From positions 1,018,300 through 1,082,299 of the forward strand of contig OY969429.1 of the NCBI GenBank assembly GCA_963699285.1: 64,000 nt of DNA, given 5' to 3'. This document shows positions 6,555 to 63,038 of this stretch, in pieces (position 1 is the first letter of the stretch; every line of letters starts with the position of its first letter). A model generated the notes under the pieces. That model had not been told where the DNA came from, did not search any database, and worked only from the letters and a program-made list of their open reading frames with translations. A program made the translations under genes and the position numbers. This stretch comes from Vulcanimicrobiota bacterium (GTDB lineage: Bacteria > Vulcanimicrobiota > Vulcanimicrobiia > Vulcanimicrobiales > Vulcanimicrobiaceae).

Positions 6555-6560
6555 ATAGCC

Positions 6561-7971: not shown

Positions 7972-8019
7972 CTGTATCTACCCTGCCGGACGAGGCTGGG
8001 TTTCTCTTGGGTTGGTTCT

Positions 8020-8100
8020 AAAAACGGGGCGGCACGGCCCCCCGTTTCCCCCCGAGCCGCCACTCGGCGGCTCAAGGGGGCCGAGCCCCCTTTAACCCCC
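8020..8100. repeat. triple-hairpin intergenic element, copy A (acts as a terminator for the minus-strand M23 gene)
   Basis: aaaaACGGGGcggcacggCCCCCCGT..GAGCCGCCactcGGCGGCTC AAGGGGGCcgaGCCCCCTTt. It is nearly identical to 45838..45918. On the minus strand, hairpin 1 is followed by TTTTT. Confidence 0.8.
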
Positions 8101-8117
8101 GCTAGCTTCTTGGCTAC

Positions 8118-10273: not shown

Positions 10274-10282
10274 CGACGGCAA

Positions 10283-11840: not shown

Positions 11841-11889
11841 CGCTTGAGGAAAGGGTTTTTCCGACGACCGCGGCCTATACCTTCGGGCT

Positions 11890-42971: not shown

Positions 42972-43534
42972 TTCATGTGCTTGACTTCGATCTTTCCGCC
43001 GATCTTGCCGAGATGGATCTCGTCCGTGTTGAAGTCCACGACGATCTTGTCGATTCGTAACGTTCCACCGGCGGTGTGAATGTAGCTCGGATGGCTGAGC
43101 GTCAGCAGCTTGGTGGCGTTCGTCCAGGTCACGAGATCGGTGTCGAACGAGCGGCGGCCGGGGTCGTCGATTCGCTCGACGTGCACTTTGCCGATGGCCG
43201 TGAAGTCGAGCGAATCCGTATTCACGCTGATGTGCTCCGCGGAAATGGATAGGTAAGGCTTTCCGGCGCGAAACACGACGCCGTTCTTGACGTCTTCGAT
43301 ATCGCCCGTAGAACCGTCGGCCGAAAGCTCCGCGCGCCCGTAGTCGAACGACCAAGAGCGCGTCGTGATGCGATGCCCCAGGACGCGGCCGCCGTGAAGA
43401 TCGACCGGCACCACCGATGGAGGAACCGGCGGCAGCCCGCGGCCGGCCAGGATGATGCCGATCGTGAGATAGATCCCGAGAGCGACCGCCAGAAGGATGA
43501 CGATCCGTCTCCAGGTGCGCTTAGAGATCTTCAC
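42968..43534 (-). CDS. LptC/OstA-like periplasmic beta-jellyroll protein (membrane-anchored)
   Basis: GTG 43534 inside ORF 42968..43645. TM segment WRRIVILLAVALGIYLTIGIILA, then a repetitive beta-strand pattern resembling LptC/LptA. The family call is tentative. Confidence 0.4.
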   Translation of the reverse strand: MKISKRTWRRIVILLAVALGIYLTIGIILAGRGLPPVPPSVVPVDLHGGRVLGHRITTRSWSFDYGRAELSADGSTGDIEDVKNGVVFRAGKPYLSISAEHISVNTDSLDFTAIGKVHVERIDDPGRRSFDTDLVTWTNATKLLTLSHPSYIHTAGGTLRIDKIVVDFNTDEIHLGKIGGKIEVKHMK

Positions 43535-45005: not shown

Positions 45006-45017
45006 CGGGAGTCCTCT

Positions 45018-45803
45018 TTGATCCGCAGACTTAGTCTCTTCGTGTTCGTGACCGCGCTGGTCGTGTCCGCATGCGGCCGCCAAGTCACGCCCAACCGGCC
45101 CGGTTTCGGGGGCGGCTCGCCGGGATACATGACGGTCAAGTTCAACGTGCAGAGCCCGTTCAACTTTGCGTCCTATCGCTACGTGTTCGTCTTCAACACG
45201 TCGGGCAGCGGGGTTACGCCTTACGGCAACGTCTTGCAAACCAATTATCAAGGATACAGCTTCGCGTTGATCGCGGGCTCGAACGGCGGCAATACGGCGG
45301 GCATTCAGGCGGTGCAATATATCCGCCAGGCCGGAACCAACGTTCCGATTCTGGCGAACCTCAACCCCTCACCCGTGCAGTTACAGTTTAACCCGAATAG
45401 CAACGGGCTGGGTACGCAGCTCTCGGTCACGTTCGCGCGTGCGCTCTTTTACGGATACGTGACGCCGAGCCCCGGCCCGGGCGGATCCTCGACGCCGTCC
45501 CCCACTCCGTCGCCGACGTCCACGCCCACGGGTGGCCCGTCGCCGACCGCCAGTCCGTCGGCGGCTCCCTACCCGACCACGCAGGCTCAAGTGAACTGGA
45601 CGTTCAACGCCTTCGTCACGCAGCCCGGCGCTCCAAATGCGCTCGACTCGATGGGCAGCGGCGGCGGAACGGACACGACCTTTCAATCGCCGCAACTAGT
45701 GACCGACCAATCGTTCGACAACGTCGTCACCGCATCGATCGGCGTCGTCCCGTCGGATCCGGCCGCCGAAATCACCGGCGTCGAATTCATCAACAACCCG
45801 TAA
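45018..45803 (+). CDS. hypothetical lipoprotein with Pro/Thr/Ser-rich linker
   Basis: TTG 45018 is preceded by GGGAG. Lipobox ALVVSAC. Central linker SPGPGGSSTPSPTPSPTSTPTGGPSPTASPS. Confidence 0.6.
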   Translation: MIRRLSLFVFVTALVVSACGRQVTPNRPGFGGGSPGYMTVKFNVQSPFNFASYRYVFVFNTSGSGVTPYGNVLQTNYQGYSFALIAGSNGGNTAGIQAVQYIRQAGTNVPILANLNPSPVQLQFNPNSNGLGTQLSVTFARALFYGYVTPSPGPGGSSTPSPTPSPTSTPTGGPSPTASPSAAPYPTTQAQVNWTFNAFVTQPGAPNALDSMGSGGGTDTTFQSPQLVTDQSFDNVVTASIGVVPSDPAAEITGVEFINNP

Positions 45804-45918
45804 GAACGGGGCGGCACGGCCCCCCGTTGGCCCCCTTTAAAAACGGGGCGGCACGGCCCCCCGTTCACCCCCCGAGCCGCGACTCCGCGGCTCAAGGGGG
45901 CAAAGCCCCCTTAATCCC
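45804..45918. repeat. triple-hairpin intergenic element, copy B (truncated copy plus full copy)
   Basis: 45805-45840 holds hairpin 1 plus the 3' arm of hairpin 3. 45838-45918 is a full copy of the 8020-8100 element. The hairpin 2 stem carries a compensatory C:G to G:C swap. Confidence 0.8.
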
Positions 45919-45949
45919 GCAATCGTTAGTGTCGCGGTGCATCTGCCCG

Positions 45950-48451
45950 TCAAAAATTAAAGCTTTGGGGGACGATTGAGCCGCCTTGGCCTAGGGCGAA
46001 GGATGCGGTCTGCGATGGAAGCGCCAGCAGGTTGATCGAGAAGGTTACGAGTTGCTGCGACTGATTGTAGAGCGCCTGTAGCTGGTAACATTCGCCGATC
46101 GTCTTGGTGTAGTAGATCACTTTGTTCTGCAGTTGAAAGTGGGCTTTCCAGTTGACGTCGGTGGCCATCTGGAGCTGCGTTTCGTATCCGAACGGCGTTG
46201 CGAATTGCACGTTGGTTGAGTAGAAACCGGCACCCGGTCCGGGAACGAACGCACCGCTAAGCAAGACGACGGATCTTCGCGACGGACGCAGGGAAAGCTG
46301 GTAGCTCACGGGCTGCGCGAGCGCGTCGAAGTTCGTCGCGAAGCCGAGCGCGAGCGCATAGGTGTCGCCGTTGAAGAGCCGCACCAGATCTTGCGCGTTC
46401 TTGACGTTCTGCGTCGGCTGTTGGTCCATGAACTGAAACGGTACGAACGGTGGCCCGTTATAGTTGGCTTCGTTGTACGTAATCGCGTTGACGAAGTGGT
46501 CGCTGATCGGCGTCGTCAAACTCCAAACTTGCTGGATCGACGCCTTTAAGTCGCCCGTCCCGTACGCATATTGCTGCACGTTTGCCGAAGCTTGCAGGTC
46601 GCTGCCGAATACTTTCGCAAGCACGGGGCCGAGTACGAACGCCAGGTCGGCGCGCGACGTCGTAAGCCTGTTGCTCGGCTCGTTGTATTGTCCGATCGTG
46701 AATTGCGCGGACAGCGGAAAGATGAAGTGCTGAAAAAAATCGTATGGGCGAATTTGGAGTTCGGGAACGGTGTTGTCTCCGAACGGCGTCTGCGTGTACG
46801 TCTTATTGTAGACGAGCTGATAATCGGCGCCTTTGGTGGTGAAATGCGTCAGCGAGTTGATGTTCGACGAAATCGTCGATTCGTTGAAGCCGCCGAAGCT
46901 GGATTGGTTGCTCGAGAAGCTGAAGTTGAGCGCTTCGCTAAGAGCTTGATTAAACTGCTGCGTGTCGGAGAACGCAAAGGTCGTGGCACTGGACTGCGTG
47001 CCGACCGAGCTGTGCGAGAACGTGTAATTTTGCGACGATTTCTGCGTCTGATGAATGACCGTCGCGTTTAGGCTTTCGTTGGGAGGCACGTTGGTCAACG
47101 ATCCGTAGTTGGACTGGTACGTGAACCCGAAATTCGACCGGAGGGTTTGCGAAAAATTTTCCTGTTCCGTTGCGGCAAAGTTGTAGGTCGTGGTGCTGGT
47201 CCGGCGGTCGCGAATGCCGTAAAAGTTCAGCGAAGCCGAACGTCGTCCGTTCTTCTTCGAATAGAAGCCGACGTACCCCAAGCCGAGGCCGACCTTCGTA
47301 AAATAGTTGACGATGTAGTAGCCGTAATAATATTGATCCTTGCCGAAGTTGATGTTCGTTTTTACCCAAAAGCCTTCGTACTGGTCGTAGCCTACGTCCG
47401 GGAAATAACTGGTCTTCGGGCGTTCGGCGGAAACGGTGCGTAGCGGAATGACGACTTTGGGCAAGTAGAAAACGGCGGCCGCGCCCAGCCACAGGATGGC
47501 TTTGTAGATAACGATCTTGTCGCCGGGGATAACGTCCATTTTCTTGCCGGTAATGTGGTATCCGGCCCGGGCGTTTTCGCAGGTCGTCAGATACGGGTCG
47601 ATGCCGTGAGCGGTGCCGTCCGGATCGGTGTGCATGTCTGCCGATTTGTAGTGGATTAGGCCCTTCTCGATGCCTTGCGAGCTTACGCCCTTCGCGTTGA
47701 CCATCTTGGCCGTCTGATCGATCACGTCGAACGTGATCGTATCGGCGGTGAGAACCGAATCTTGTGCGTGGTCTACGATGAACGGATGCCCCGTTACGGT
47801 GACCGTACGGATGCCGTCGTAATGTGCCCGGTCGCCGACGATTTCTTCTTGCTGGTAGAAGATGTGCACGTTTCCGATCGCGTCGCCCGGCTTGCCGTCG
47901 TTGGTGTTGCCTTGGACGGTGTCGGAAATGATGGCGACGTAATTCGGCGCGAGCGTCGCGACGCCGATCGGCTGCGGCGTCGGAGACGGCGGCAACGCTC
48001 CGGCGGGCGTGATCGGCGGCGGCGTGCTGCCGCCGCGAACCAGAAAGACGGGTGCGTTGGCTTGCTCGGGATTGGGCGTCGGCGTGGGCACCGGAGGCGG
48101 CGTACTCGACGGGCTTCCTTGCGGCCTCGGCGTCGCGACGAGCGTTTTTGCAAAGCCGGGCGGCGGAGGAAAAGTCGGCGTAGCGTACGGTCCGGGCGTC
48201 GTGGAAGCCGACGGGCTGGGCGCCGGCGTCGGCTCTTCGAATTGCGCGACGAGCGCCGGCGCGCTCTGCGAGCGCGCCGGCTGCGAACGCGCTGCCCGCG
48301 AACCGCAAGTATTATCGTTGAGGAGCGCGAGCGCTTGCTCTCCGTCGTCGCTCGAAGCTGCCGCTACCTGCGCCGCTACGATGCCGCAAACGAACGCAAG
48401 GAGGGTCCCAATCGCGACGGAGCCGCGACGCCAATTCCAACCCAACAACAC
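45950..48451 (-). CDS. LptD/OstA-like outer-membrane protein with long Pro-rich N-terminal region
   Basis: 833 aa. Signal/anchor, ~150 aa Pro/Thr/Ser-rich, OstA-like segment (..VGDRAHYDG..VTVTGHPFIV..LTADTITFD..), then ~550 aa of aromatic-rich alternating beta-barrel-like sequence ending ..QSFNF. It follows lptF/G. Confidence 0.55.
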   Translation of the reverse strand: MLLGWNWRRGSVAIGTLLAFVCGIVAAQVAAASSDDGEQALALLNDNTCGSRAARSQPARSQSAPALVAQFEEPTPAPSPSASTTPGPYATPTFPPPPGFAKTLVATPRPQGSPSSTPPPVPTPTPNPEQANAPVFLVRGGSTPPPITPAGALPPSPTPQPIGVATLAPNYVAIISDTVQGNTNDGKPGDAIGNVHIFYQQEEIVGDRAHYDGIRTVTVTGHPFIVDHAQDSVLTADTITFDVIDQTAKMVNAKGVSSQGIEKGLIHYKSADMHTDPDGTAHGIDPYLTTCENARAGYHITGKKMDVIPGDKIVIYKAILWLGAAAVFYLPKVVIPLRTVSAERPKTSYFPDVGYDQYEGFWVKTNINFGKDQYYYGYYIVNYFTKVGLGLGYVGFYSKKNGRRSASLNFYGIRDRRTSTTTYNFAATEQENFSQTLRSNFGFTYQSNYGSLTNVPPNESLNATVIHQTQKSSQNYTFSHSSVGTQSSATTFAFSDTQQFNQALSEALNFSFSSNQSSFGGFNESTISSNINSLTHFTTKGADYQLVYNKTYTQTPFGDNTVPELQIRPYDFFQHFIFPLSAQFTIGQYNEPSNRLTTSRADLAFVLGPVLAKVFGSDLQASANVQQYAYGTGDLKASIQQVWSLTTPISDHFVNAITYNEANYNGPPFVPFQFMDQQPTQNVKNAQDLVRLFNGDTYALALGFATNFDALAQPVSYQLSLRPSRRSVVLLSGAFVPGPGAGFYSTNVQFATPFGYETQLQMATDVNWKAHFQLQNKVIYYTKTIGECYQLQALYNQSQQLVTFSINLLALPSQTASFALGQGGSIVPQSFNF

Positions 48452-48455
48452 GAGG

Positions 48456-49610
48456 TTAGCGGTCTTCCCGCCAAAGCAAGACGATACCCGTGATGCCCAT
48501 GATGACGTTGGGCAGCCAAGCGGCGAGAACAGGATCTATTTGACCGTTGCGTCCGAATGCCGACGCGATCGACATTAAAATAAAATAAATAAAGAATGCG
48601 ACGACCGCGAGCGTGATGCCGAGCGTCCTTCCGCGGCTTCCGAAACGGATCGCGAGCGGCAGCGCGATGATGACGCCGATGACGCAGGCAAACGGCCAAG
48701 CCAGCCGGTTCGCAAGATTGATTTGCAGACTTCCCAGCGCACTTCCGCCCAAGCCTTGAGCCTGCATGGCGCGCACTTGCGTAGACAAGGCCTTGCTGCT
48801 CATCGTCCACGGGTCGCTGTTTAGGCTGCTCATGAATTGTGCTGCCGTTTCCGCCAGCGGCAGCCCGATCGCGATGGTGTCCACGTGCTGCTGGCTCGAC
48901 ATAAAGCCTTCTTGGTTGTAGCGCGTGTCGATGACGTCGTGCAGGTCCAGCTGCGTGCCGTCCACGTTCGCCGTTTTGGCTTGCAGCGTTTCGACCCAAG
49001 GCCCTCCGTGGCCGGGTTTGAAGATCTCGACCCCTTCCATCGTCCGGTTGTCGGGCGCGACTTGCGTTACGTAGAAGACGTTGCCGGTGTCGGGATCCTT
49101 GCGAAAGAACTGCGATTCGACCGGAAGCGAATCGGTGTGGTAAATGATTTGGTAGAACGTGCGCGTCGAAAGATCGACCGACGTCGGCTCGATGTATTCG
49201 TTCATCGCATACGTGGCCGCAAACATGAAGATGCCGAATAACATCGGCGCCAGTGCGATGCGCCAAATCGAGATACCGGCGGTCCGCATGGCCGGGATCT
49301 CGTTGTCTCCCATGAGGCGGCCGGTCGCGAGCAGCGTCGCAAAAAGGCAGGCGAAGGGGAACGCCATCGGGATGGACTGCGGGATCCGGAAGATCACGAA
49401 ACGCAGTGCCAAGAAGAACGGCGCGTGCTGGTTGATGATGTAGTCGGCGGCGAGAATGAAGATGTTCAGCGCCCAGAAGATCAGGAACGCCCCGAACGCA
49501 AAAAGGAACGGCCCGATCATCTCTCCCAGCAGATACTTGTCGAGGATATGGAGGCGCGGCACGAGGGCGCGCCGCTGCGGTAACGGCTGACGTTCGATCA
49601 GGGTCGCCAT
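48456..49610 (-). CDS. LptF/LptG family LPS export permease
   Basis: 384 aa. YjgP/YjgQ pattern: ILDKYLLGEMIGPFLF.., six TM segments with a central periplasmic domain. Confidence 0.8.
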   Translation of the reverse strand: MATLIERQPLPQRRALVPRLHILDKYLLGEMIGPFLFAFGAFLIFWALNIFILAADYIINQHAPFFLALRFVIFRIPQSIPMAFPFACLFATLLATGRLMGDNEIPAMRTAGISIWRIALAPMLFGIFMFAATYAMNEYIEPTSVDLSTRTFYQIIYHTDSLPVESQFFRKDPDTGNVFYVTQVAPDNRTMEGVEIFKPGHGGPWVETLQAKTANVDGTQLDLHDVIDTRYNQEGFMSSQQHVDTIAIGLPLAETAAQFMSSLNSDPWTMSSKALSTQVRAMQAQGLGGSALGSLQINLANRLAWPFACVIGVIIALPLAIRFGSRGRTLGITLAVVAFFIYFILMSIASAFGRNGQIDPVLAAWLPNVIMGITGIVLLWREDR

Positions 49611-49623
49611 GGCCCGGAATCGG

Positions 49624-50097
49624 CTAGTAGCTGCGGTATGCCGAAATCACGCGCGCGACGTAGGCCTGCGTTTCGGCGAACGGCGGCACGCCGCCGTAAC
49701 GGTCCACCGCGCCGGGGCCGGCATTGTACGCGGCGACGGCCAGCGTTGCGTTGCCGTGATATCGATCGAGCAGCGTCTTGAGATAGGACGAGCCGCAAGC
49801 TACGTTTTCGTTTGGATCGAAGGGATTGCTCACGCCGCACGAGCGCGCCGTCGCCGGCATGATCTGCATCAAACCTTGAGCGCCGGCGACGCTGAGCGCG
49901 GACGGGTCTCCGGCCGACTCGGCCATCAGCACGGCGCGAATCAATCCCGGCGGTACCTGGCTGCGAGCCGATGCGTCGTTGACCAGCGTGTGAATTTGCT
50001 GCGGGTCCAGGGCGTGCGGCGAATACGGCAGATAGCCCGCGCCTCCACATCCGTAGAGCAGGCCCAAGAGACCGAGAGCGGCGAGCAGCCTTTGCAT
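49624..50097 (-). CDS. lytic transglycosylase (SLT domain) lipoprotein
   Basis: Internal ATG 50097 (MQRLLAALGLLGLLYGC lipobox). Catalytic region LMAESAGDP..GAQGLMQIMP..AYNAGPG. Confidence 0.85.
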   Translation of the reverse strand: MQRLLAALGLLGLLYGCGGAGYLPYSPHALDPQQIHTLVNDASARSQVPPGLIRAVLMAESAGDPSALSVAGAQGLMQIMPATARSCGVSNPFDPNENVACGSSYLKTLLDRYHGNATLAVAAYNAGPGAVDRYGGVPPFAETQAYVARVISAYRSY

Positions 50098-50242
50098 AGC
50101 ACCTAGCAGTATAGCGAACGGGCGTACCGGAGCCCGGGACCCCGCATCCTTTGGTCGAGCGATTTTCTCCGCCGCCTCGTCACGGCCTGTGGATGAGGCC
50201 CGGGCTGAGCGGCTTTTCATCTTCGAACGCCCGTTCGGGGCG

Positions 50243-51377: not shown

Positions 51378-51821
51378 GTGCACGCGGATCTTCCGCGCTT
51401 TTTGGGTTCGGCCGAGCATGCTCTTGATGACAAGGGCCGGCTCATCGTGCCCGCACGGTTCCGCGAACGCCTCGGACCCGGCTTCGTGATCACCATCGCT
51501 CCGCCCGAGCCTTGCCTTGCCTTATACCCTACCGTTACGTGGGGGGAGTTTTGTGCGAGGCTGGAGTCCGCTCCGCGTAAGGACGAGCGCTTTCGCCGTT
51601 TGGTGCGCCACTTGTTTGCCAACACCGAAGAAGTTGCGTGCGACGCGCAAGGCCGTTTGCTCGTTCCCGCTTCGCTGCGCCAGTACGCCGGAATCGAGCG
51701 GGACGTCGTATCGGTCGGTTCGCTCACGCGAGTGGAGATCTGGGCGAAAGACCGCTATCCGGCGCACGCCGCGCCGGAAGGCGAGGTCGCGGAGTTCATC
51801 GCGGACCTCGGTCTGTTGTGA
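51378..51821 (+). CDS. mraZ: transcriptional regulator MraZ
   Basis: 147 aa. Two SpoVT-AbrB halves with DDKGRLIVPARFR and DAQGRLLVPASLR. GTG start. Confidence 0.95.
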   Translation: MHADLPRFLGSAEHALDDKGRLIVPARFRERLGPGFVITIAPPEPCLALYPTVTWGEFCARLESAPRKDERFRRLVRHLFANTEEVACDAQGRLLVPASLRQYAGIERDVVSVGSLTRVEIWAKDRYPAHAAPEGEVAEFIADLGLL

Positions 51822-51836: not shown

Positions 51837-52712
51837 TTGAGTCACGTCTCGGTGCTGTTGAAGCCGGCGCTGGATTACTTGGCGATCCGCGCCGATGGGG
51901 TCTACGTCGATGCGACCTTTGGTGCGGGCGGTCACACGCAAGCGATCCTGGAGCGCATCTCGACGGCGGGTCGCGTCATCGCCCTGGATTCCGATCCGAC
52001 GGCGGCGGATCGAGCGCGAGCGCTGGCGTCGCCGCAATTGACCTTCGTGAACGCCAACTTCCGTCAACTCGCGGAAGTACTCGACGAGCTCCGGGTGGCG
52101 CTGGTGGACGGCGTGCTCTTCGATTTGGGGGTATCTTCGATGCAATTCGATGAAGCGTATCGCGGCTTTTCGCTGTCGAAAGACGGCCCGCTCGACATGC
52201 GCATGAACCCCTACGTGGGAAAGAGTGCATACGAAGTCCTAGCGGGCGCCAGCGAGCGCGAGCTCGCCGACATCTTTTTTACGTTCGGCGAAGAACGCTC
52301 GGCGCGGCGCATCGCGCGGTCGATCGTCGAGCGCCGCTCGATCGGCGCCTTGCCCACGACGACGACGGACTTTGCCAAACTCGTAGCGGGCGCCGTGCAT
52401 CGTCCCGGCTATCGCGAACGCATCCATCCGGCGACGCGGGTTTTTCAGGCGCTGCGAATTGCGGTGAACGACGAGCTCGACGCGCTGCGCGACGGTCTCG
52501 ATTCTGCCGTCGGGCGGCTGTGCGGCGCGGGCCGCGTCGTCGCGATCAGCTTTCATTCGCTCGAAGATCGGATCGTGAAGCGGAAATTTCGCGAGGATTC
52601 GCGGCTGAACGTACTGACGAAGAAACCGGTCACGCCCGACGAAAACGAGTGCGACGAGAATCCCCGCGCCCGTAGCGCGAAAATGCGTGCTGCGGAACGG
52701 AAGACCGGATGA
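51837..52712 (+). CDS. rsmH: 16S rRNA (cytosine1402-N4)-methyltransferase
   Basis: 291 aa. HVSVLL.., DATFGAGGH, FDLGVSS.Q.D, SFHSLEDR. TTG start. Confidence 0.95.
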   Translation: MSHVSVLLKPALDYLAIRADGVYVDATFGAGGHTQAILERISTAGRVIALDSDPTAADRARALASPQLTFVNANFRQLAEVLDELRVALVDGVLFDLGVSSMQFDEAYRGFSLSKDGPLDMRMNPYVGKSAYEVLAGASERELADIFFTFGEERSARRIARSIVERRSIGALPTTTTDFAKLVAGAVHRPGYRERIHPATRVFQALRIAVNDELDALRDGLDSAVGRLCGAGRVVAISFHSLEDRIVKRKFREDSRLNVLTKKPVTPDENECDENPRARSAKMRAAERKTG

Positions 52713-53122
52713 TGGTCCAGCGAGAGTACGTCGAGCGCCGGCATCAGCGCATCGACAATCCGCGCCGCGCAAAGTCGGCGGCCCAGCGCCGGGTCGTTCG
52801 GAGCGTGCGCGGACGTTACGCCGGCATCGTTCAAGTATCGTGTACGCTCGCCATCGTTTCGGCGATGCTGCTCGGCTACGTCATGCTGACCTCGAACTTG
52901 ACGGGGCTCACCTACGCCGTCACCCGCGCTCACGTTCAACGCGAAGCGCTATTGGAAGAAACGGCTCGACTCGACGACCGGCTCGAAGTACTCAGTTCGG
53001 ACCGCCGGCTCGCGGCGATCGCCGCCAAACTCGGCATGAAGGATCCGCAGCGCTTCGTCGTGATCGCGCCGCCGGCCGCCGAGTCGATTACGCCCCATCT
53101 CGCACTCCTGACTTCGCACTAG
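52709..53122 (+). CDS. ftsL: cell division protein FtsL-like (single-pass, coiled coil)
   Basis: 137 aa. Basic N-terminus, TM segment VSCTLAIVSAMLLGYVMLTS, then a coiled-coil stretch. The position between rsmH and ftsI supports the call, as does the ATGA overlap with rsmH. Confidence 0.7.
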   Translation: MMVQREYVERRHQRIDNPRRAKSAAQRRVVRSVRGRYAGIVQVSCTLAIVSAMLLGYVMLTSNLTGLTYAVTRAHVQREALLEETARLDDRLEVLSSDRRLAAIAAKLGMKDPQRFVVIAPPAAESITPHLALLTSH

Positions 53123-53143: not shown

Positions 53144-54894
53144 ATGCATAACAGAACGTTCGCGCGCGTCGGTCCGATGCGCGCGAAGACGTTCTTCTAC
53201 ATCTGCGCTACCATCGCGCTGTTCTTGGTTTGGCGACTGTACTTCGTGCAGGTCGTGCGCGGCCCGGTGCTGGCGCGCGAAGCCCTGGCGCAACGCTCCG
53301 ACACGGTCGAAGTATTCGCGCGGCGTGGCAGCATCTTGGATCGGGGGGGTGACGTGCTCGTCCGGTCGCTGCCTTCGCAGAGCGCGTTCGTCGTTCCGCA
53401 CGACGTCGTGGATCCCGACGCCACCGTCGCGAAGCTCGAAACGATCTTCGGGAAGCTCGACCCGGCGCTGGTGGCGACCGTCCACGACCGTCACGTCTGG
53501 TTTGCGTGGATCGCGCGGAAGATTCCCAACGAAACGGCGACGCGCCTGGCGGCGCTGAACCTGGCCGGCGTCGAACTGGAACAGGAAGACAGCGGCAGGC
53601 GCGTGGACGCAGCCGGAACGACCGCGTCGACGGTTCTCGGTTTCGTCGGTACCGACGAGAACGGATTGGACGGGGCCGAGTATGCGTTCGACGACTTGTT
53701 ACGCGGACGGTCGGGAAAGGTAACGCTGGAGGCCGACGAGTTCGGGCGCCCGATTCCTTTCGGCAAAGAGAGCGTCGTCGTTCCGGCCGACCCGGGCCTG
53801 GATTTGGTGCTGACGATCGATTCGTACCTGCAATTCGTAGCCGAGCAAGCGCTGCAGGAGCAGGTGTCGAAGTTTCACGCTCTCGACGGGACGGCCATCG
53901 TTATGGATCCGTGGACCGGCGAAATACTTGCGATGGCCAATGCTCCCGATTTCGATCCAAATCGTTTCTCCGCGTTCGACGACTCGCACCGGCGCGATCG
54001 CGCGGTGATGGATGCATACGAGCCCGGCTCGACCTATAAATTGCTCACGGTCGCAGCGGGTCTTGAGTCTGGGAAAATCACGGCTTCGTCGCGCTTCCCG
54101 GCGCGCGACGAAATACAAATCGGCGGCCGCACGATACATAACGCCGAAGACGGCTTCATGGCCAACCAAGGCGGCAGCGAAACGGTCGAGCAGATCGTCC
54201 AATACTCCCACAACGTCGGCGCCGCCGAGATCGGACTTTCGCTCGGCCCGAAAACGTTCTTCGATATGGAGCGCAAGGCCGGGTTCGGCGACCCGACCGA
54301 AGTTGGGCTGCCGGGCGAAAATCCGGGCATCGTCCCGCCGCCTGCGGAGTGGAGCGACTCGTCGCTCGCCACCATGTCGTTCGGGCAGGGCGTTTCGGTG
54401 ACGCCGATCGCGATGGCGCGCTTCTACTGTGCGATCGCGAACGGTGGGATTTCCATGCGGCCGCGAATCTTGCACGCGATCCAGAGCCCCGACGGCCGCA
54501 CGCTCTACACGTACGGTCCGGAGGTCGAGCGGCGCGTCTTCTCCGAGCGAACGGCAGCGACGTTACGCGGTTTCTTGCGTCAGGTCGTGCTCGCCGGCAC
54601 CGGCGATCCCACCGCGCAGATCGCCGGCTATTCGACCGCCGGCAAGACCGGTACCGCGCAGATGGTGGTCGACGGCCAGTACCGGGCCGGATCGTATGCG
54701 GCGTCGTTTATCGGGATGGTGCCTTACGAACGTCCGCGCTACGTTATCTACGTGAAAGTCGAACGGCCGATCGGGTCCTACTACGGCAGCGTCGTCGCGG
54801 CGCCGGCATTTGCCAAGATCGCGCGCGCGGCGATGCTCTACGCGGGCGTGCTTCCCCAGTATACGCCGCCGCCGCGCACTCCGGGCGCGGCGCG

Positions 54895-54898
<4 letters not shown>
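53144..54898 (+). CDS. ftsI: penicillin-binding protein, class B transpeptidase (FtsI/PBP3-like)
   Basis: 584 aa. TM anchor, then SxxK = STYK, SxN = SHN, KTG = KTGT. GGGAGGAAG precedes the ATG. Confidence 0.9.
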
Positions 54899-56354
<1,456 letters not shown>

Positions 56355-56358
<4 letters not shown>

Positions 56359-57734
56359 GGCTGCCGTTCGAAGACGCGGTCGAGAGGTTGCGCGCGACCG
56401 TGCTGCGCCCGGAGTTGGCTCCGGCTTTTTTGCGCGTCGTCACCGATACGCGCTCGTTGCAGTCCGGTGACGCATTTCTGGCCCTTCGCGGCGATCGTTT
56501 CGACGGCCATGCGTTTACGAGCGAGGCCGTCCGGCGGGGAGCCGTGGCGCTCGTCGTCGAGCGCGCCGAAGCGGCCGCCGGCGACGTTACGGCGCTGGTC
56601 GTACGCGATTCGCTGCAGGCCTACATGCAGCTCGCGGGCCTCGCCCGCTCGCGCTTTAGCGGAGAGGTGCTCGGCATTACGGGCAGCGCCGGCAAGACGA
56701 CGACGAAAGCTTTCGCCGCGCAGCTGCTGCAGCCGCGCTTCGGCGACCGGGTACTCGCGGCGCCCGCCAACGAGAACAACGAAATCGGCGTCAGCAAGCT
56801 GTTGCTCGCGGCCGACGACGAGAACCACAGTGCGCTCGTCGTCGAGATGGGCGCGCGCAAGTACGGCGACGTCGCCGCTCTGGTGGAGATCGCTCGTCCG
56901 GACGTCGGCGTGCTGACGAACGTCGGTGACGCGCATCTCGAGATCGTGGGAACGCGCGAGCGCCTGGAAGAGACGAAATGGGCTCTGTTCGGACGAGGCG
57001 CGCGCGCGGTGCTGAACATCGACGATGCTGCGTCGGTGCGGCGTGCGCCGGAGTTGCCCGAGCCGCCGCACTGGTTCTTCGCCGGCGGTCCGGACGACGA
57101 TCCGCCCGCGACCGGGAACGTCACCGCACTGCTCGGAACGCGTTTGCTCGTGGACGTTGCCGGCGGCGCATCGCAGCGGGCTGCGGTCGACGTTCGCGTG
57201 CCGGGCGCGCATAACCGTGCGAATGCCGCCGCAGCCGCGGCCGCCGCGCTCGAGCTCGGCGTACCGTTTGCCGCCGTGGCGCTCGCGCTTTCGGATTTGC
57301 AGATGCCCGAAGGCCGCTACGAGAAGACGACGCTTCCCTCCGGTGCCACGGCGATCTACGATGCGTACAACGCGAATGCGGCGGGCACGATCGCAGCGCT
57401 CGACGCGTTCGCGCAGGAGCCCGCGCGGCGGCGAATCGCCGTGCTAGCCAGCATGGCGGAACTCGGTTCCGAGGCCGCCGCGCTGCACGAACGCGTCGGC
57501 GCGCGCGTGGCGGAACGTTCGATCGACGTGCTGCTCGTCGGCGGAGATTTCGCCGAGCGGCTCGCGAGCGGGGCGCGCGAAGCCGGTCTGTCCTCAGAAC
57601 GAATCGTGCACTTTGCAACGAACTCGGACGCCTCGTCGTGGTTGCGCGAAAACGGACGCGAAGGCGACGTCATTCTCCTCAAGGGATCGCGAAAATACAA
57701 ACTCGAGGAAGTACTCGAAGGAATGCGGTCGTGA
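56355..57734 (+). CDS. murF: UDP-N-acetylmuramoyl-tripeptide--D-alanyl-D-alanine ligase
   Basis: 459 aa. GITGSAGKTTTK. GTGA overlap with murE. Confidence 0.9.
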
Positions 57735-58435
57735 AAGGACGCCTAACCGTAACGCGCCCGGAGGTTCCGGCGGGTTTGGTCGCGATTCCGGTGCGGACGC
57801 GCCTGGTGCGCGGCGGCGATGATTTGCCCGCGGTCGTCGGCGAAGCGGTTCGCGGTATCGCAGGCCCCGGCGACGTCGTCGCAATCTCGGAAACGGCCGT
57901 TGCAATCGCTCAAGGCCAGTTCGTCGCGGCCGAGTTCGTGCGCCCGTCCAAACTCGCGTACGCGCTTTCGCGGCGCGCCGGCGCGCTCGCAACGGTGAGC
58001 CAGCCCGAGTCGCTCCAGCTGGTCATCGACGACGCGGGAGCGTTGAAGGTCGTCTACGCCGCGGCGATGCACGCGATCGGGCGTTTGAGCGGGAAGCGAG
58101 GCGCGTTCTACGAGATATTGGGGGAGTCCATCACCGCGATCGACGGATACACCGGAACGCTTCCACCGTACGAACGTGCCATCGTGCTCGCCCCGCGCGA
58201 CCCCGACGCGTTCGCGCGGGCGGTTTTCGAGCGCACCGGCGTAGCCTGCGCGATCGTGGACGTCAACGATCTGGAGAAAGCCAAAGTACTCGGCGCGTCC
58301 GAGGGCGTCGCGCGCGCGTGCGTGGCCAACGCCCTGCTCGACAATCCGCACGGCAACGGCGACGAGCAGACACCGATCGTGGTGCTCAAATGGCGCGGGC
58401 GCGGCCGGAATCCGCTCTCGGAACCCGTCGCGTGA
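57731..58435 (+). CDS. CofE / F420-0:gamma-glutamyl ligase-fold protein embedded in the dcw cluster
   Basis: GTG 57731 inside ORF 57638..58435. GTGA overlaps with both murF and mraY. Segments GDDLPAVVGEAV..GDVVAISETAVAIAQGQ, ACAIVDVNDL..VLGASEG and LLDNPHGNGDEQTPIVVLK resemble PF01996. Confidence 0.6.
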   Translation: MKGRLTVTRPEVPAGLVAIPVRTRLVRGGDDLPAVVGEAVRGIAGPGDVVAISETAVAIAQGQFVAAEFVRPSKLAYALSRRAGALATVSQPESLQLVIDDAGALKVVYAAAMHAIGRLSGKRGAFYEILGESITAIDGYTGTLPPYERAIVLAPRDPDAFARAVFERTGVACAIVDVNDLEKAKVLGASEGVARACVANALLDNPHGNGDEQTPIVVLKWRGRGRNPLSEPVA

Positions 58436-59388
58436 CGGTCTGGTGGGCGTCGCTGCTGTTCGGTTTCGTTGCCGCGGCTGTGGCCGGCGCGCTTGCGTTG
58501 GCGGCGCTGCGGGGCCTGAAAATCGGTCAGCACGCCTACGAAGACGCTCCGCAAACGCACCAGAAGAAAACGGGAACGCCGACGATGGGCGGCGTCGTCT
58601 TCATCGTAGCGCTCTTGCCGCTGGCGTTTCGCCCGGACCTGCCGCTCGCGATGCAAACGTTTTTCGTGGTGGCTGCCTGCGGTGCGATCGGTTTTTGCGA
58701 CGACTTCCTTTCGATCCGGCGCGGAAAGAACCAAGGCTTGCGCGCGCGCACGAAGTTTTTGGCGAGCGCGCTGGTGTCGGTTCTCTTCCTGCGTCTGTGT
58801 TCCGATTCGACGGCAATCTTTCCGCGCGACGTGCTCTTTCACGCCGGTACGATGACGGTCGTCGCACCGCACTGGCTTTGGTTGCTGCTCGGCATATGTG
58901 CGATCACCGGTACGATCCACGCCGTCAATCTTACCGACGGGCTCGACGGCCTGGCCACCGGCACGGCGATTCCGCCGCTCGCCGTGCTGGCGTACGCGGC
59001 TCGAAATTCGGGCGTCCCCGTTCCGGAGGAAGCGGCCCTGCTAGGTGTGGGCGCGTGCTTTGGATTCTTGATCTACAATCGTTACCCGGCCAAGATGTTC
59101 ATGGGCGACACCGGCTCGCTCGCCCTCGGCGCGCTACTCGCGAGCGTCGCCATTCTATCGGGTCAAATGCTGTTGCTGATCCTCGTGGGCGGCGTCTTCG
59201 TCGCCGAAACGCTCTCGGTAATCCTTCAGGTCGCATACTTCAAGAGCAGCGGCGGCAAGCGGATCTTTCGCATGAGCCCTTTACACCACCACTTCGAGCT
59301 CGGCGGCTGGCCCGAGACGAAGGTGACGGGGGCGTTTTGGGCCGCATCGCTGGGCTGTTCGCTGCTCGGACTGGCGCTGGTGCGATGA
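58432..59388 (+). CDS. mraY: phospho-N-acetylmuramoyl-pentapeptide transferase
   Basis: GTG 58432 inside ORF 58318..59388. ..KKTGTPTMGG.., NLTDGLDGLA, MGDTGSLALG, SPLHHHFELGGW. Confidence 0.95.
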   Translation: MTVWWASLLFGFVAAAVAGALALAALRGLKIGQHAYEDAPQTHQKKTGTPTMGGVVFIVALLPLAFRPDLPLAMQTFFVVAACGAIGFCDDFLSIRRGKNQGLRARTKFLASALVSVLFLRLCSDSTAIFPRDVLFHAGTMTVVAPHWLWLLLGICAITGTIHAVNLTDGLDGLATGTAIPPLAVLAYAARNSGVPVPEEAALLGVGACFGFLIYNRYPAKMFMGDTGSLALGALLASVAILSGQMLLLILVGGVFVAETLSVILQVAYFKSSGGKRIFRMSPLHHHFELGGWPETKVTGAFWAASLGCSLLGLALVR

Positions 59389-60773
59389 GCGAGTCGATGC
59401 GCGGACAGACGTGGCTGGTGATCGGTTTGGGAAAGAGCGGCGTCGCCTGCTGCAACGTTCTCGCCGAGCTCGGGGCCCGCGTTATCGTCACCGACGAGAA
59501 GCCGGTCGCGGAATTAACCGCCCGGATCGCCGAAGCCGGCGCCCACGCCACGTTCGTTGCGCCCGCGTCGCTTGACGCCGCGCTCGCGCAAGTGACGTCG
59601 GCGGTGCTTTCGCCGGGTATTCCGCTGACTGCGGCCGTCGTCGCCCGCGTCCGTGCGGCCAACGTTCCCATCGTCGGCGAGATCGAGCTCGCCTATCGCC
59701 TGTGCCGCGCGCCGATCGTTGCCGTTACCGGCACCAAGGGAAAGTCGACGGTGACCGCGCTGACCGGGCACTTGTTAGCCGGCGCCGGCAAGAACGTTCG
59801 CGTCGGGGGAAACATCGGGAACCCGCTGGTGAGCGAAGTGCGCGGGCTCGGACCAAACGACTGGGCCGTCGCGGAAGTCTCGTCGTTCCAGCTCGAAACG
59901 GTCGATCGGTTCAAGCCGCGCGTCGCCGTTCTGCTCAACGTCGCGCCCGATCACCTGGACCGGTACGCCTCGATGGAGGAGTACGCCGCCGCCAAGTTTC
60001 GCATTTTCGCCCGCCAGGACGAATCGGATGCGTTCGTGGGAAATCTCGACGACGCGCGCGTCGCCGCTCTCCGTAACGAAACCGCCCGGCCGCTTCGGGC
60101 AAAGCAGTCCTGGTTTACGCTGGCAGCGAATCGTGACGGGGCCACGATGTATCTTGCAAACGGGACGATTTTTTATGCGCCGGCAACGCCGGCTGCCCCG
60201 CCCGTGGAGGTGGCGTCGCTGGCGGAGATTCCGATCGCCGGGCGCCACAACGTCGGCAACGCGATGGCGGCCCTCTCGGCCGCAATCGCCGCCGGATGCG
60301 AACCCCGCCGGCTGCGCGCTGCGCTTGCTTCGTTCCGTCCGATGCCGCACCGGCTCGAACCCATCGCGGAAATCGACGGCGTCCTTTACGTCGACGACTC
60401 GAAGTCCACCAATCCCGAGTCCACGATCGCGGCGCTGCGCGCTTACGACCGCCCGATCGTGCTGATCGCCGGAGGCCGCGCCAAGGGAACGCCGTTTGCG
60501 GCTATGGGCGCGGTCGTTCGCGAGCGCGTCAAACGCTTGATCGCGATCGGCGAAGCGGCCGGCGAGGTCGTCGCGTGCTCGGGAGATACGCCGTCGCAGC
60601 GCGCGAGCTCCATGGAAGAAGCCGTCCGCGCCGCGCGCGATGCCGCCGTAGCGGGCGACGTCGTGCTGCTGTCGCCTGCCTGCGCGTCGTTCGACATGTT
60701 CGCGTCGGCCGAGGATCGCGGGGAGCGTTTCGTCCGGGCCGTTTCGGCGCTGCGGGAGCGAGCCGGTGCATAG
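59385..60773 (+). CDS. murD: UDP-N-acetylmuramoylalanine--D-glutamate ligase
   Basis: ATG 59385 (ATGA overlap with mraY) inside ORF 58443..60773. VIGLGKSG, VTGTKGKST, ..DDSKSTNP.. Confidence 0.9.
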   Translation: MSESMRGQTWLVIGLGKSGVACCNVLAELGARVIVTDEKPVAELTARIAEAGAHATFVAPASLDAALAQVTSAVLSPGIPLTAAVVARVRAANVPIVGEIELAYRLCRAPIVAVTGTKGKSTVTALTGHLLAGAGKNVRVGGNIGNPLVSEVRGLGPNDWAVAEVSSFQLETVDRFKPRVAVLLNVAPDHLDRYASMEEYAAAKFRIFARQDESDAFVGNLDDARVAALRNETARPLRAKQSWFTLAANRDGATMYLANGTIFYAPATPAAPPVEVASLAEIPIAGRHNVGNAMAALSAAIAAGCEPRRLRAALASFRPMPHRLEPIAEIDGVLYVDDSKSTNPESTIAALRAYDRPIVLIAGGRAKGTPFAAMGAVVRERVKRLIAIGEAAGEVVACSGDTPSQRASSMEEAVRAARDAAVAGDVVLLSPACASFDMFASAEDRGERFVRAVSALRERAGA

Positions 60774-61923
60774 CCGCAAAGTAACGGCGCGGCCGATCGA
60801 ACACGCGCCGCCGCGCTCCTACGTCGCGACCCCGCCCGACACGTGGTTGTTCGCCGCGGTTGCGGCGCTGGTCGCGTTCGGCCTGATTATGGTCTACAGC
60901 GCCTCGAGCGCGACCGCGTTCGCCGAACACGGCGATGCCGCCTACTATATGAAACGCCAGCTGGTGTGGCTCGTCGTTGGCTGCGTTCTGGCCGTCGCCG
61001 CTTTCCAAATGGACTACCAAAAGCTGCGAAAACCGGCGCCGTACCTCTTGCTCGGCGCGATCGTGCTGCTCGTTCTGGTGTTGGTCCCGCACGTCGGCCT
61101 GTCGGTCAACGGGGCGCGGCGTTGGATCGGCGCTTCCGCGGTTTCTCTACAGCCCTCCGAGTTCGCCAAACTCGCGCTGGTCGTGTACTTGGCCGCGATC
61201 CTCTCGACGCGCGGCGAGCGCATCACGCAGCTCGCGAGCGGTCTCGCACCGTTGTGCGTGCCGGTGTTCCTTCTGGCGCTGTTGGTTCTCAAGGAACCCG
61301 ACATGGGTACGGCCAGCATTTTCGTCTTCGTCGCTTTTACGATGTTCTTCGCCGCCGGAGCGCGGGTGCCGCACCTGGCCGCCATCGCGGCGGCGACGCT
61401 TCCGATCGTTCTCTTTACGGTGATGTCGAGCTCCTACCGCCGGGCTCGGATCTTTGCGTTCCTCGATCCATGGAAGGATCCGCAGAACACCGGATTTCAC
61501 ATCGTGCAATCTCTGCTGGCACTGGGAAGCGGAGGCCTGTTCGGCGTCGGGCTCGGAGCGTCGCGTGCGAAGTTCTTTTATCTGCCCGAGCAGTACACCG
61601 ACTTCATCTTCGCCGTTATCGGTGAAGAACTGGGCATGATCGGCGGTTTGTTCGTGCTCGCGGTCTTCGTCCTCATCGCGTACCGCGGCGTCAAGATCGC
61701 GCTCGCGGCAACCGACCGGTTCGGCTACTTTCTCGCCATCGGGTGCACGGCCATGATCGTGCTCCAAGCGTTCGTCAACATCGGCGTCGTCACGGCCTCG
61801 TGGCCCGTGACCGGCGTGCCGCTTCCGTTCATCTCGTTTGGCGGAAGTTCGCTGATCGTGAACCTGGTCGCGGTGGCGCTGGTGGCCAACGTCGGCCGCC
61901 GCCGCCGCGTCAACGCGCCCTAG
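60766..61923 (+). CDS. ftsW: SEDS family peptidoglycan glycosyltransferase FtsW
   Basis: 385 aa, polytopic. ..LQPSEFAKL.., LPEQYTDFIFAVIGEELG, PLPFISFGGSS. GTG start overlaps the murD end by 8 nt. Confidence 0.9.
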   Translation: MHSRKVTARPIEHAPPRSYVATPPDTWLFAAVAALVAFGLIMVYSASSATAFAEHGDAAYYMKRQLVWLVVGCVLAVAAFQMDYQKLRKPAPYLLLGAIVLLVLVLVPHVGLSVNGARRWIGASAVSLQPSEFAKLALVVYLAAILSTRGERITQLASGLAPLCVPVFLLALLVLKEPDMGTASIFVFVAFTMFFAAGARVPHLAAIAAATLPIVLFTVMSSSYRRARIFAFLDPWKDPQNTGFHIVQSLLALGSGGLFGVGLGASRAKFFYLPEQYTDFIFAVIGEELGMIGGLFVLAVFVLIAYRGVKIALAATDRFGYFLAIGCTAMIVLQAFVNIGVVTASWPVTGVPLPFISFGGSSLIVNLVAVALVANVGRRRRVNAP

Positions 61924-63038
61924 TGGCGGCGGCGTTGAAGGTGCTCTTCGCCGGCGGCGGCACCGGCGGTCACGTTTATCCCGCCATCGCGCTCGCGGAC
62001 GCGCTGGGAGCGCACGCCGATGCCGCGTTCGTGGGCACCGCCGGGCGCCTGGAATCCGATCTCGTTCCGGCTGCCGGCTATCCGCTGCACCTGGTTGCGA
62101 GCCGGCCCCTCGCGCGCAAAGCGCCGGTCGCATTGGCCGGCACGTTGGGCGCCAACGTCGCCGGCACGCTGGAGAGCTTGCGGCTCATCTCGGCGCTGCG
62201 ACCCGACATCGTCATCGCAACGGGCGGTTACGTCTGCTTTCCGGTCGTCCTCGCTGCACGGATCTTACGCGCGACGGGACGCTTTCGCGGCAAGATCGCG
62301 CTGCTCGAGCCCAACGCCAAGCCCGGTCTCACGAACCGGTTGCTGGCGCCGATGGTTGACGAAATTTGGGGAGCATTTCCGCGCACGGATCCACGTTTTC
62401 GTGGAAAATACGTGCGAACCGGCGTTCCGGTCCGCGCCGCGTTGCGCACGCTGCCGCAACGCACCGGTGCGATCGAGCGTCTCGGGCTCTCGCCCGCAGA
62501 CCACACCCTGCTCGCGCTGGGCGGGAGCCAGGGCGCGCGAACGATCAACGACGCGCTCGTCGCTCTCGTGTCGCAAGCGCGCTTCCCGCCCGGGTGGCAA
62601 CTGGTGCTCGTCACGGGCGAGAGCGATTACGCCCGCGTAAACGCGGCGCTGGGCACGGAGAACGCGCGAGTCGCGGTATTCCCCTACGTACCCGATCCAT
62701 CCGACGCGTACGCTTGCGCCGATCTGGTGCTCGCACGAGCGGGGGCTTCGACGCTGGGCGAACTCGCGGCAATCGGCCTGCCGGCGATATTGGTTCCCTA
62801 CCCGTACGCTTCCGACGACCATCAGGCCGCGAACGCCGAGGCCGTACGGAGCCGCGGCGCTGCCGTTACGGTTACCGACGCGCAGGTCGCGGCCGGCTCG
62901 CTCGCGGCCGTCTTGGCGGAGGCGACCGCGCCTGCGCGTCTGTCCGCTATGGCGCAGGCCGCCTCGGACGGCCGCGCCGGGGATGCGGTTGCGTCGATTC
63001 TCGCGCGGATTGACGCCCTGACGGCGCGAAAGAGCTGA
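61923..63038 (+). CDS. murG: undecaprenyldiphospho-muramoylpentapeptide beta-N-acetylglucosaminyltransferase
   Basis: Inside ORF 61743..63038. KVLFAGGGTGGHVYPA, ..GGSQGA.., ..RAGASTLGELAA..Q..NA. The start is GTG 61923 or TTG 61935. Confidence 0.9.
   Translation: MAAALKVLFAGGGTGGHVYPAIALADALGAHADAAFVGTAGRLESDLVPAAGYPLHLVASRPLARKAPVALAGTLGANVAGTLESLRLISALRPDIVIATGGYVCFPVVLAARILRATGRFRGKIALLEPNAKPGLTNRLLAPMVDEIWGAFPRTDPRFRGKYVRTGVPVRAALRTLPQRTGAIERLGLSPADHTLLALGGSQGARTINDALVALVSQARFPPGWQLVLVTGESDYARVNAALGTENARVAVFPYVPDPSDAYACADLVLARAGASTLGELAAIGLPAILVPYPYASDDHQAANAEAVRSRGAAVTVTDAQVAAGSLAAVLAEATAPARLSAMAQAASDGRAGDAVASILARIDALTARKS

Follow-up and report, generated by a model that had tools for sequence, protein, structure and literature searches.

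What is the function of a gene lodged between murF and mraY, two consecutive genes of peptidoglycan precursor synthesis? From UDP-N-acetylmuramic acid (UDP-MurNAc) to lipid II, the cytoplasmic pathway is considered to be without gaps and almost universal, and in the division and cell wall (dcw) clusters known to us mraY directly follows murF. The stretch of 64,000 nucleotides (nt) analyzed here, hereafter the window, comes from a Vulcanimicrobiota bacterium (contig OY969429.1, positions 1,018,300 to 1,082,299 of the forward strand). Its dcw cluster carries an additional gene in this slot, which we call X (57731-58435, + strand) and which codes for 234 amino acids (aa). A first-pass annotation had proposed that X belongs to the family of CofE, the coenzyme F420-0:L-glutamate ligase, and that it modifies a peptidoglycan precursor. 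We tentatively favor the reading of X as a functional enzyme of the cytoplasm, a nucleotide-dependent carboxylate-amine ligase whose substrate would be UDP-MurNAc-pentapeptide or lipid I, and regard this as a serious possibility that still falls a little short of probable. A conserved enzyme-like cistron between murF and mraY across a phylum would imply an undescribed extra step, or an additional partner, in precursor synthesis.

The gene begins with GTG and ends with a TGA at 58433-58435, and it overlaps both of its neighbors, as had been claimed. At cgGTCGTGAaagg (57731-57734) its start codon shares bases with the TGA stop of the murF frame, and at gtcgcGTGAcggtc (58432-58435) its stop shares bases with the GTG start of mraY. 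Upstream lies murF (56355-57734, + strand, 459 aa; Pfam Mur_ligase, Mur_ligase_M and Mur_ligase_C), coding for the UDP-MurNAc-tripeptide:D-Ala-D-Ala ligase, and downstream mraY (58432-59388, + strand, 318 aa; Pfam Glycos_transf_4 and MraY_sig1), coding for the phospho-MurNAc-pentapeptide translocase. The longest mechanical open reading frame (ORF) for X starts at another GTG at 57638, 93 nt upstream of 57731, and spans 265 aa. We judge 57731 to be the better start, because the public gene call (P0001) is 234 aa long with 100% identity over 100% of the query, and because 46 of 70 related loci also offer a start codon with a 4-nt overlap to the murF stop. The peptide strings quoted in the first-pass annotation all occur in this translation. 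Since the protein has no hydrophobic segment (maximum 19-residue hydropathy 1.42), X is predicted to be cytoplasmic. The overlaps are not peculiar to X: stops and starts overlap at all junctions from ftsI to murG, with GTGA four times (the other two at ftsI/murE, 54895, and murE/murF, 56355), ATGA at mraY/murD (59385), 8 nt at murD/ftsW (60766) and TAGTG at ftsW/murG (61921). The entire ftsI-to-murG block, and not X alone, looks translationally coupled.

We observed a strong conservation of X and of its position. A protein database search returned 2,420 relatives, the top 120 of which are 74-100% identical to X, measure 223-239 aa and come from metagenome-assembled genomes (MAGs) named Vulcanimicrobiaceae, Aquilonibacter, Baltobacteraceae or Eremiobacteraeota; because of these names we assign the window to Eremiobacterota (WPS-2). 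We then scanned synteny in one genome per species, identifying neighbors by tblastn; 80 loci were returned, 71 of them with at least 58% identity to X (58-87%). At 71 of 71 loci, wherever the contig reaches, X directly follows ftsI-murE-murF and directly precedes mraY; as the loci were recovered through X itself, this count describes the position of X where it is present, not its frequency among Eremiobacterota genomes. A few loci bear other labels (Verrucomicrobiia, Acidiferrales, Rhodospirillales and Armatimonadota MAGs). On a closed chromosome of 4.5 Mb the order is mraZ-rsmH-ftsL-ftsI-murE-murF-X-mraY-murD-ftsW-(DUF2332)-murG-murC-murB-ddl. The stop of X overlaps the mraY start by 4 nt in 43 of 70 loci and by 7-13 nt in most others (7-10 nt in 19), and the outliers look like frameshifted assemblies. 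Across 121 Eremiobacterota sequences, conservation reaches at least 98% at 99 of the 234 positions, among them every residue of the clade motifs described below. X is under strong purifying selection. Nor is its ORF a chance frame, given a third-codon-position GC content of 0.76, homologues of the same length at 58-87% identity in 71 genomes, and the 99 conserved positions. X thus appears to be a fixed cistron of the dcw operon in Eremiobacterota, translated in step with MurF and MraY, and the first-pass annotation was right to call it integral to the operon.

A few assemblies join X to a neighbor in an apparent single ORF: X-MraY (L010, 6001-7671; P0218) and MurF-X (P0124). Three further candidates for X-MraY fusions (P0129, P0161 and P0246) were rejected as frameshifted translations, and the N terminus of P0218 is also out of frame. 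The remaining X-MraY and MurF-X fusions may stem from faulty assembly and not be real. The DUF2332 gene between ftsW and murG (351 aa; L081, 14443-15498, OY969808.1) belongs to the related Eremiobacterota chromosome and is not in the window.

To which family does X belong? Against Pfam PF01996, X scores 50.6 bits (cut-off 25; E 2.2e-13), the aligned part being profile positions 2-144 of 218. By sequence, whether a single query or a profile was run against the PDB, X could be aligned to the CofE of A. fulgidus over the N-terminal 65-70 residues alone, and the full-length relationship was therefore recognized through hhalign and Foldseek. When an alignment of 36 X-type proteins was compared by hhalign with one of 23 true CofEs, X residues 16-225 matched CofE residues 2-223 with a probability of 98.5% (E 2.9e-15), so that the homology is full-length. 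The AlphaFold2 model of X has a predicted local distance difference test (pLDDT) score of 91.4 and a predicted template-modeling (TM) score of 0.88. Its Foldseek search against the PDB returned the A. fulgidus CofE only (E 4e-10, TM score 0.57-0.61, 22% identity), with nothing else below E = 1. Judged by these profile comparisons and by the model, X has the CofE fold and belongs to the PF01996 or CofE-FbiB superfamily, in agreement with the call made earlier from the translation. Like CofE, it has a GDDL motif, a GD motif, an ID motif, an xxD motif and a C-terminal G-x-G-x-x-x-x-P-x-V-V-x-(R/K).

Although sharing its fold, X is not a CofE orthologue as judged by scores and residues. It falls far below the cut-offs of the NCBIfam models for CofE (TIGR01916, 32.5 bits against 180.65; NF009809, 29.2 bits against 274) and of the folate-type model (TIGR04132, 11.2 bits against 350). 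We built an X-clade hidden Markov model (HMM) solely from X-type proteins outside Eremiobacterota. The window protein scores 237 bits with this model versus 29.8 bits with a CofE HMM, whereas true CofEs score a median of 33 bits with the X-clade HMM versus a median of 356 with the CofE HMM (range 272-405). This opposite scoring places X, at the level of profiles, in a separate clade of the superfamily. Unlike CofE, X carries a helical insertion at residues ~92-135 in the AlphaFold2 model, and X, like its whole clade, lacks ~27 residues of the CofE segment ~160-195 in the two alignments. The deleted segment includes the CofE-invariant positions G177, D180, G183, L186, D195 and E196, and it lies in the region of the domain-swapped beta-hairpin that in CofE covers and contacts the bound F420 (PMC10861534). 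The context differs as well, being the dcw operon for X and cof or fbi genes for CofE. Pfam finds neither Mur_ligase_M nor Mur_ligase_C in X, which is thus not a member of the Mur ligase/MurT family. The fold and the general chemistry are already known; what is new is the X clade together with its context and the class of substrate it probably serves.

The residues that X retains argue for a working active site. Numbering CofE after the reference protein P0293, the CofE-invariant D17/D18, D33, D108 and D149 as well as P213 are kept in X as D30/D31, D48, D138, D177 and P215, with D138 and D177 100% conserved. We take D108 and D149 of CofE to be the ligands of two metal ions, which is in line with their conservation among the 23 true CofEs. 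Across the 36 X-type proteins, T23, A76, G103, G124, F126, G131, N205, P206 and P215 are invariant, and D48, Q61, Y127, D138, P146, D177, N179, D180, G208 and T214 nearly so. The clade motifs, namely T23, Q61, G124-x-F-Y, D138, P146, D177-x-N-D and N205-P-x-G-N/Q-x-x-E/Q-Q-T-P, are all present in the window protein. Because D30/D31, D48, D138, D177, Q61, N179, D180, N205, G208, T214 and P215 are 100% conserved in the 121 Eremiobacterota sequences, this retained and clade-specific acidic and polar core, whose residues we assume to cluster in space, is easier to reconcile with an active site than with a decayed one.

Outside Eremiobacterota, the X clade is repeatedly associated with peptidoglycan enzymes. 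Searching 1.84 billion cluster representatives exhaustively, we obtained 701 relatives at E <= 1e-3 and 401 at E <= 1e-10, and we determined domain architectures for those listed representatives that reach 300 aa or more, 86 in number. Many relatives of ~400 aa carry an N-terminal transmembrane helix and an unfamiliar domain of ~150 aa ahead of X. Fusions to Amidase_3 (MurNAc-L-Ala amidase) account for 6 of the 86, and one such cluster has 25 members, spread over several contigs of Firmicutes and Spirochaetia MAGs. Fusions to AsnB-type glutamine amidotransferases occur in 6-7 of the 86, those to TPR in up to 11, and single cases join X to a polysaccharide deacetylase (with the X part before the transmembrane segment), an M20 peptidase, PlsY and, as mentioned, MurF. 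The Amidase_3-X fusions have no signal peptide and no hydrophobic segment. This signal-peptide-less Amidase_3 type has a characteristic 'ITNVW' N-terminal domain and is either fused to X or encoded by a separate gene. In a Pelotomaculum-like lineage, the separate gene immediately precedes X and overlaps it by 4 nt (L095, 6081-7633; L096, 1180-2732), in the order PAP2, Amidase_3, X, YhcN/YlaJ, polysaccharide deacetylase, D,D-carboxypeptidase; at two other loci, L087 and L088, it lies two genes upstream (L087, 3435-6687). A cytoplasmic MurNAc-L-Ala amidase of the 'ITNVW' type is itself unusual, and the best NCBIfam match of the X-linked Amidase_3 domains, CwlD, stays below its cut-off. In Sporomusa aerivorans and Thermosinus carboxydivorans, an Asp_Glu_race-family gene, likely the glutamate racemase gene murI, is followed by a gene for a 180-aa membrane protein and then by X. 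Clade members of Lucifera and Methylomusa likewise lie two genes downstream of an Asp/Glu-racemase-family gene.

These data suggest that the X clade is tied to murein by four independent kinds of genomic evidence: the position between murF and mraY, the Amidase_3 fusions and operons, the racemase-gene neighborhood in Negativicutes, and the deacetylase and carboxypeptidase fusion or neighborhood. The membrane tethering found in other lineages, with the N-terminal transmembrane partner domain and the PlsY fusion, fits an action at the inner membrane face, where lipid I is made. Thus, the proposal that X modifies a peptidoglycan precursor has gained support from the fusions and operons of its clade in other phyla as far as the association is concerned; the function itself, that is catalytic activity, ligase nature, substrate and amine, we infer by analogy. 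The ties of the family to amidases, amidotransferases, a deacetylase and a racemase-family gene extend over Firmicutes, Spirochaetia-type MAGs and cyanobacteria, so that the family may define a broadly distributed and so far unrecognized class of peptidoglycan-modifying enzymes.

The membrane-anchored partner domain measures ~180 aa and has no Pfam match. It is fused ahead of X in proteins of the cyanobacterial type (N-terminal half in L072-L076) and is a separate gene in Sporomusa and Thermosinus (L093, 7445-7987; L094, 7456-7989). An HMM of this domain found no match in the window or in the Eremiobacterota loci L001-L071, L081 and L082, while as a control it matched the cyanobacterial and Negativicutes loci. 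Likewise, no Amidase_3 gene is present in the dcw region of the window or in that of the related closed Eremiobacterota chromosome. In Eremiobacterota the positions beside X are taken by MurF and MraY, and not by the partner domain or Amidase_3. Further loci of the 'ITNVW' Amidase_3 family are L083 (8001-9620) and L091 (6001-7557). At the cyanobacterial-type loci, the fused X is followed by a protein of 380-430 aa (L072, 6282-7421; L073, 2958-4103; L074, 6911-8158; L076, 6677-7960), which shows a weak GNAT signal, is 50% identical between L072 and L076, and has no NCBIfam and no significant Pfam match.

How would a ligase act in this place? By analogy with CofE chemistry, X would use a nucleoside triphosphate and a divalent metal to activate, as an acyl phosphate, a free carboxylate on the completed precursor in the cytoplasm, and would then join to it an amine, which could be ammonia, an amino acid or a polyamine. 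As precursor we envisage UDP-MurNAc-L-Ala-D-iGlu-mDAP-D-Ala-D-Ala (with D-isoglutamate and meso-diaminopimelate as second and third residues), or lipid I just after MraY. The MurE of the window (54895-56358, + strand, GTG start; Pfam) has a DNPR motif, which we take to indicate an mDAP-type stem peptide. Such a stem has two free carboxylates, the D-iGlu alpha-carboxylate and one on mDAP, and these would be the most plausible targets. The first-pass annotation had also pointed to the MurNAc lactyl carboxylate; in Eremiobacterota we consider it unlikely as a target, because MurC has already amidated it and X sits after MurF, and the suggestion is not established. It is plausible as the target of the amidase-linked clade members.

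Enzymes with a task comparable to the one proposed are known. MurT/GatD, AsnB/LtsA and MurD act at the cytoplasmic face, where they activate a carboxylate of the stem peptide and form an amide. This is like chemistry on a like substrate to that proposed for X, although the comparison concerns how the enzymes work and not family membership, the fold of the Mur ligases being unrelated to that of X. The AsnB-type amidation systems have a further link to X through the clade members fused to AsnB-type amidotransferases. The CwlD/PdaA muramic-lactam system of the spore cortex resembles the X clade in that X-clade genes are fused or coupled to a CwlD-like Amidase_3, with one neighborhood also containing a deacetylase, a D,D-carboxypeptidase and YhcN/YlaJ; unlike in that system, the X-linked amidases have no signal peptide, and the Eremiobacterota X has no amidase neighbor. 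The authors of the CofE structures see a close parallel between its mechanism and that of MurD (PMC10861534). A CofE-fold enzyme of Chlamydia, FolC2 (CT611; COG1478), substitutes for FolC (PMC1971073; PMC4161248), and a CofE-fold enzyme can therefore replace an enzyme of the Mur ligase fold. FolC2 resembles X in its proposed role, as a CofE fold recruited to a substrate other than F420 and recognized through gene clustering, but it clusters with fol genes and X with mur genes, and X stays far below the TIGR04132 cut-off. Our literature search found no publication on dcw clusters together with a gamma-glutamyl ligase; CofE homologues are tied to peptidoglycan there by mechanistic analogy only.

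Several observations weigh against a ligase acting on a peptidoglycan precursor. The CofE-invariant residues K44, S110, N111, G152 and R153 are replaced in X by I59, Y140, T141, D180 and L181, and R156 has no counterpart. Some of these six residues presumably contact guanosine triphosphate (GTP), in line with their conservation among the true CofEs; nucleotide use by X is therefore uncertain. Together with the loss of the segment of six invariant positions, these replacements leave the more specific claim of a GTP-dependent glutamate ligase not established. Position 63 of X, the equivalent of CofE R48, holds E, A or Q in Eremiobacterota, whereas the remaining clade members have R there. The genomic contexts of the clade are heterogeneous: in gut Clostridia X is coupled to a YnbB-like pyridoxal phosphate (PLP) enzyme, in cyanobacteria a conserved GNAT-like gene lies downstream of X, and the contexts of AsnB-X, TPR-X-deacetylase and one transmembrane-form locus are uninformative. 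The clade may thus not share one substrate. To this are added the conditional nature of the synteny count and the state of the literature, in which we found no biochemistry for any X-clade member and no muropeptide analysis for Eremiobacterota. Vulcanimicrobium alpinus is the only Eremiobacterota strain in culture; its description notes a thin peptidoglycan layer and mentions neither wall chemistry nor F420, and a search on Eremiobacterota and F420 returned nothing relevant. V. alpinus and the cultured Negativicutes make the question of X directly testable.

A more specific version of the precursor-ligase reading concerns polyamines. In Negativicutes, the D-iGlu alpha-carboxylate carries cadaverine or putrescine, which is needed for the tethering of the outer membrane by OmpM (PMC10628300; PMC12826042), and in the literature on polyamines in peptidoglycan we found no gene named for the enzyme that attaches them. 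The X clade could be this missing family: it would derivatize the D-iGlu alpha-carboxylate as a CofE-fold analogue of MurT, much as FolC2 is a CofE-fold analogue of FolC, attaching cadaverine or putrescine in Negativicutes and, in Eremiobacterota, a lineage that has lipopolysaccharide export genes, carrying out a related, so far unobserved modification of the stem peptide as an obligatory step between MurF and MraY. We consider this unlikely, and what speaks for it is circumstantial. The presence of the clade near a racemase-family gene in Sporomusa, Thermosinus, Lucifera and Methylomusa is consistent with it, as are the AsnB-type fusions and one Amidase_3-X fusion directly downstream of an Orn/Lys/Arg decarboxylase gene. 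Against it, the clade is also found in Pelotomaculum and Thermanaeromonas, which we take to be monoderm Firmicutes.

Could X instead have lost catalysis altogether? The six CofE residues and the segment ~160-195 that it lacks would suit a regulatory pseudo-enzyme, one that binds UDP-MurNAc-peptide or bridges MurF and MraY so as to pass the soluble precursor to the membrane step. So would its coupling to MurF on one side and MraY on the other, and so would the MurF-X fusion (P0124) and the apparent X-MraY read-throughs (P0218, L010). Nevertheless, D48, Q61, D138, D177, N179, D180, N205, E212 and T214 are invariant across phyla and 100% conserved in the 121 Eremiobacterota sequences, a pattern typical of a catalytic metal-binding site. 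The fusions to MurF and MraY are single cases, several of them from frameshift-prone assemblies, and elsewhere the clade works away from both proteins. We therefore regard a non-catalytic X as improbable.

We hold a role in a cytoplasmic module of peptidoglycan recycling or editing to be just as doubtful. There, X would act on the free lactyl carboxylate of MurNAc or UDP-MurNAc, or on the stem peptide, for example by an Mpl-like re-ligation. The idea draws on the commonest and most independent association of the clade, that with the signal-peptide-less Amidase_3 in fused or translationally coupled form, and on the first substrate of CofE being a lactyl carboxylate (PMC10861534). It fits the Eremiobacterota protein poorly: the dcw region has no Amidase_3 gene, the lactyl carboxylate is already occupied after MurF, and the change at residue 63 (R to E, A or Q) suggests that the Eremiobacterota branch differs from the amidase-linked one.

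Even less probable is that X makes or modifies a small soluble amide of the osmolyte or cofactor type, similar to N-acetylglutaminylglutamine amide, and owes its place in the dcw operon merely to co-expression with growth. One fusion partner of the AsnB type, in P0199, scores 225.8 bits with the N-acetylglutaminylglutamine amidotransferase model, below its cut-off of 570.1, and the other AsnB-type fusions, the M20 peptidase fusion, the cyanobacterial GNAT-like gene and the clostridial YnbB-like enzyme could be read in the same way. Mere co-expression hardly accounts for a gene kept throughout a phylum in one slot between two consecutive pathway enzymes and overlapping both neighbors, and the company of Amidase_3, deacetylase, racemase and D,D-carboxypeptidase genes speaks for murein.

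Sporomusa, Thermosinus, Pelotomaculum, gut Clostridia and cyanobacteria, all of which have clade members close to X, are not known to make F420. That X is a genuine cofactor glutamyl ligase, either CofE (F420-0/F420-1:L-glutamate ligase) or a folate ligase of the FolC2 type, is very improbable: X does pass the PF01996 gathering threshold, it shares an F420 name with many relatives, and COG1478 members do serve F420 and folate (PMC1971073; PMC4161248), but it misses the TIGR01916, NF009809 and TIGR04132 cut-offs, scores 29.8 bits where true CofEs score 272-405, lacks the ~27 residues with six CofE-invariant positions in the F420-contacting hairpin region, and is accompanied by no cof, fbi or fol gene among those ORFs of the 64-kb window that our Pfam scans covered.

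The name 'coenzyme F420-0:L-glutamate ligase' is nonetheless the public name of P0001, of Eremiobacterota MAG genes and of X-clade genes from cultured Negativicutes (P0436, P0444, P0447, P0462, P0519 and P0520, from Sporomusa, Thermosinus and Lucifera). Because the residue and score evidence does not support it, this naming is probably a systematic mis-annotation that affects hundreds of genes. Such mis-annotation, cultured Sporomusa included, could inflate predictions of F420 biosynthesis.

The remaining genes of the dcw operon are as the first-pass annotation had identified them, with a Pfam match for each named gene. All lie on the + strand, in the order mraZ-rsmH-ftsL-sized ORF-ftsI-murE-murF-X-mraY-murD-ftsW-murG-murC. 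Upstream of murE are mraZ (51378-51821), rsmH (51837-52712), an ORF of the size of ftsL that has no Pfam match (52709-53122), and ftsI (53144-54898). Downstream of mraY follow murD (59385-60773), ftsW (60766-61923), murG (61923-63038) and murC, which begins at ~63041 and is cut by the end of the window at 64000. Just upstream of the operon, on the - strand, 43521-50220 holds genes for Lnt (apolipoprotein N-acyltransferase) and LptF/LptG together with an 832-aa ORF that has no Pfam match; given these lipopolysaccharide export genes, the host is presumably diderm.

Two more observations concern the rest of the window. A second division and wall cluster occupies 5190-12086 on the - strand, with ftsE, ftsX, a response regulator with GGDEF, an M23 peptidase with a PcsB-type coiled coil, and two tandem S41 CtpB-like PDZ proteases. 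At 16138-20367 on the + strand, a single ORF of 1,409 aa combines two lipoyl domains, an E3-binding domain and an E2 acyltransferase catalytic domain with a complete 2-oxoglutarate dehydrogenase E1 (E1_dh, Transket_pyr and OxoGdeHyase_C), and the whole ORF is thus a full E2o-E1o fusion.

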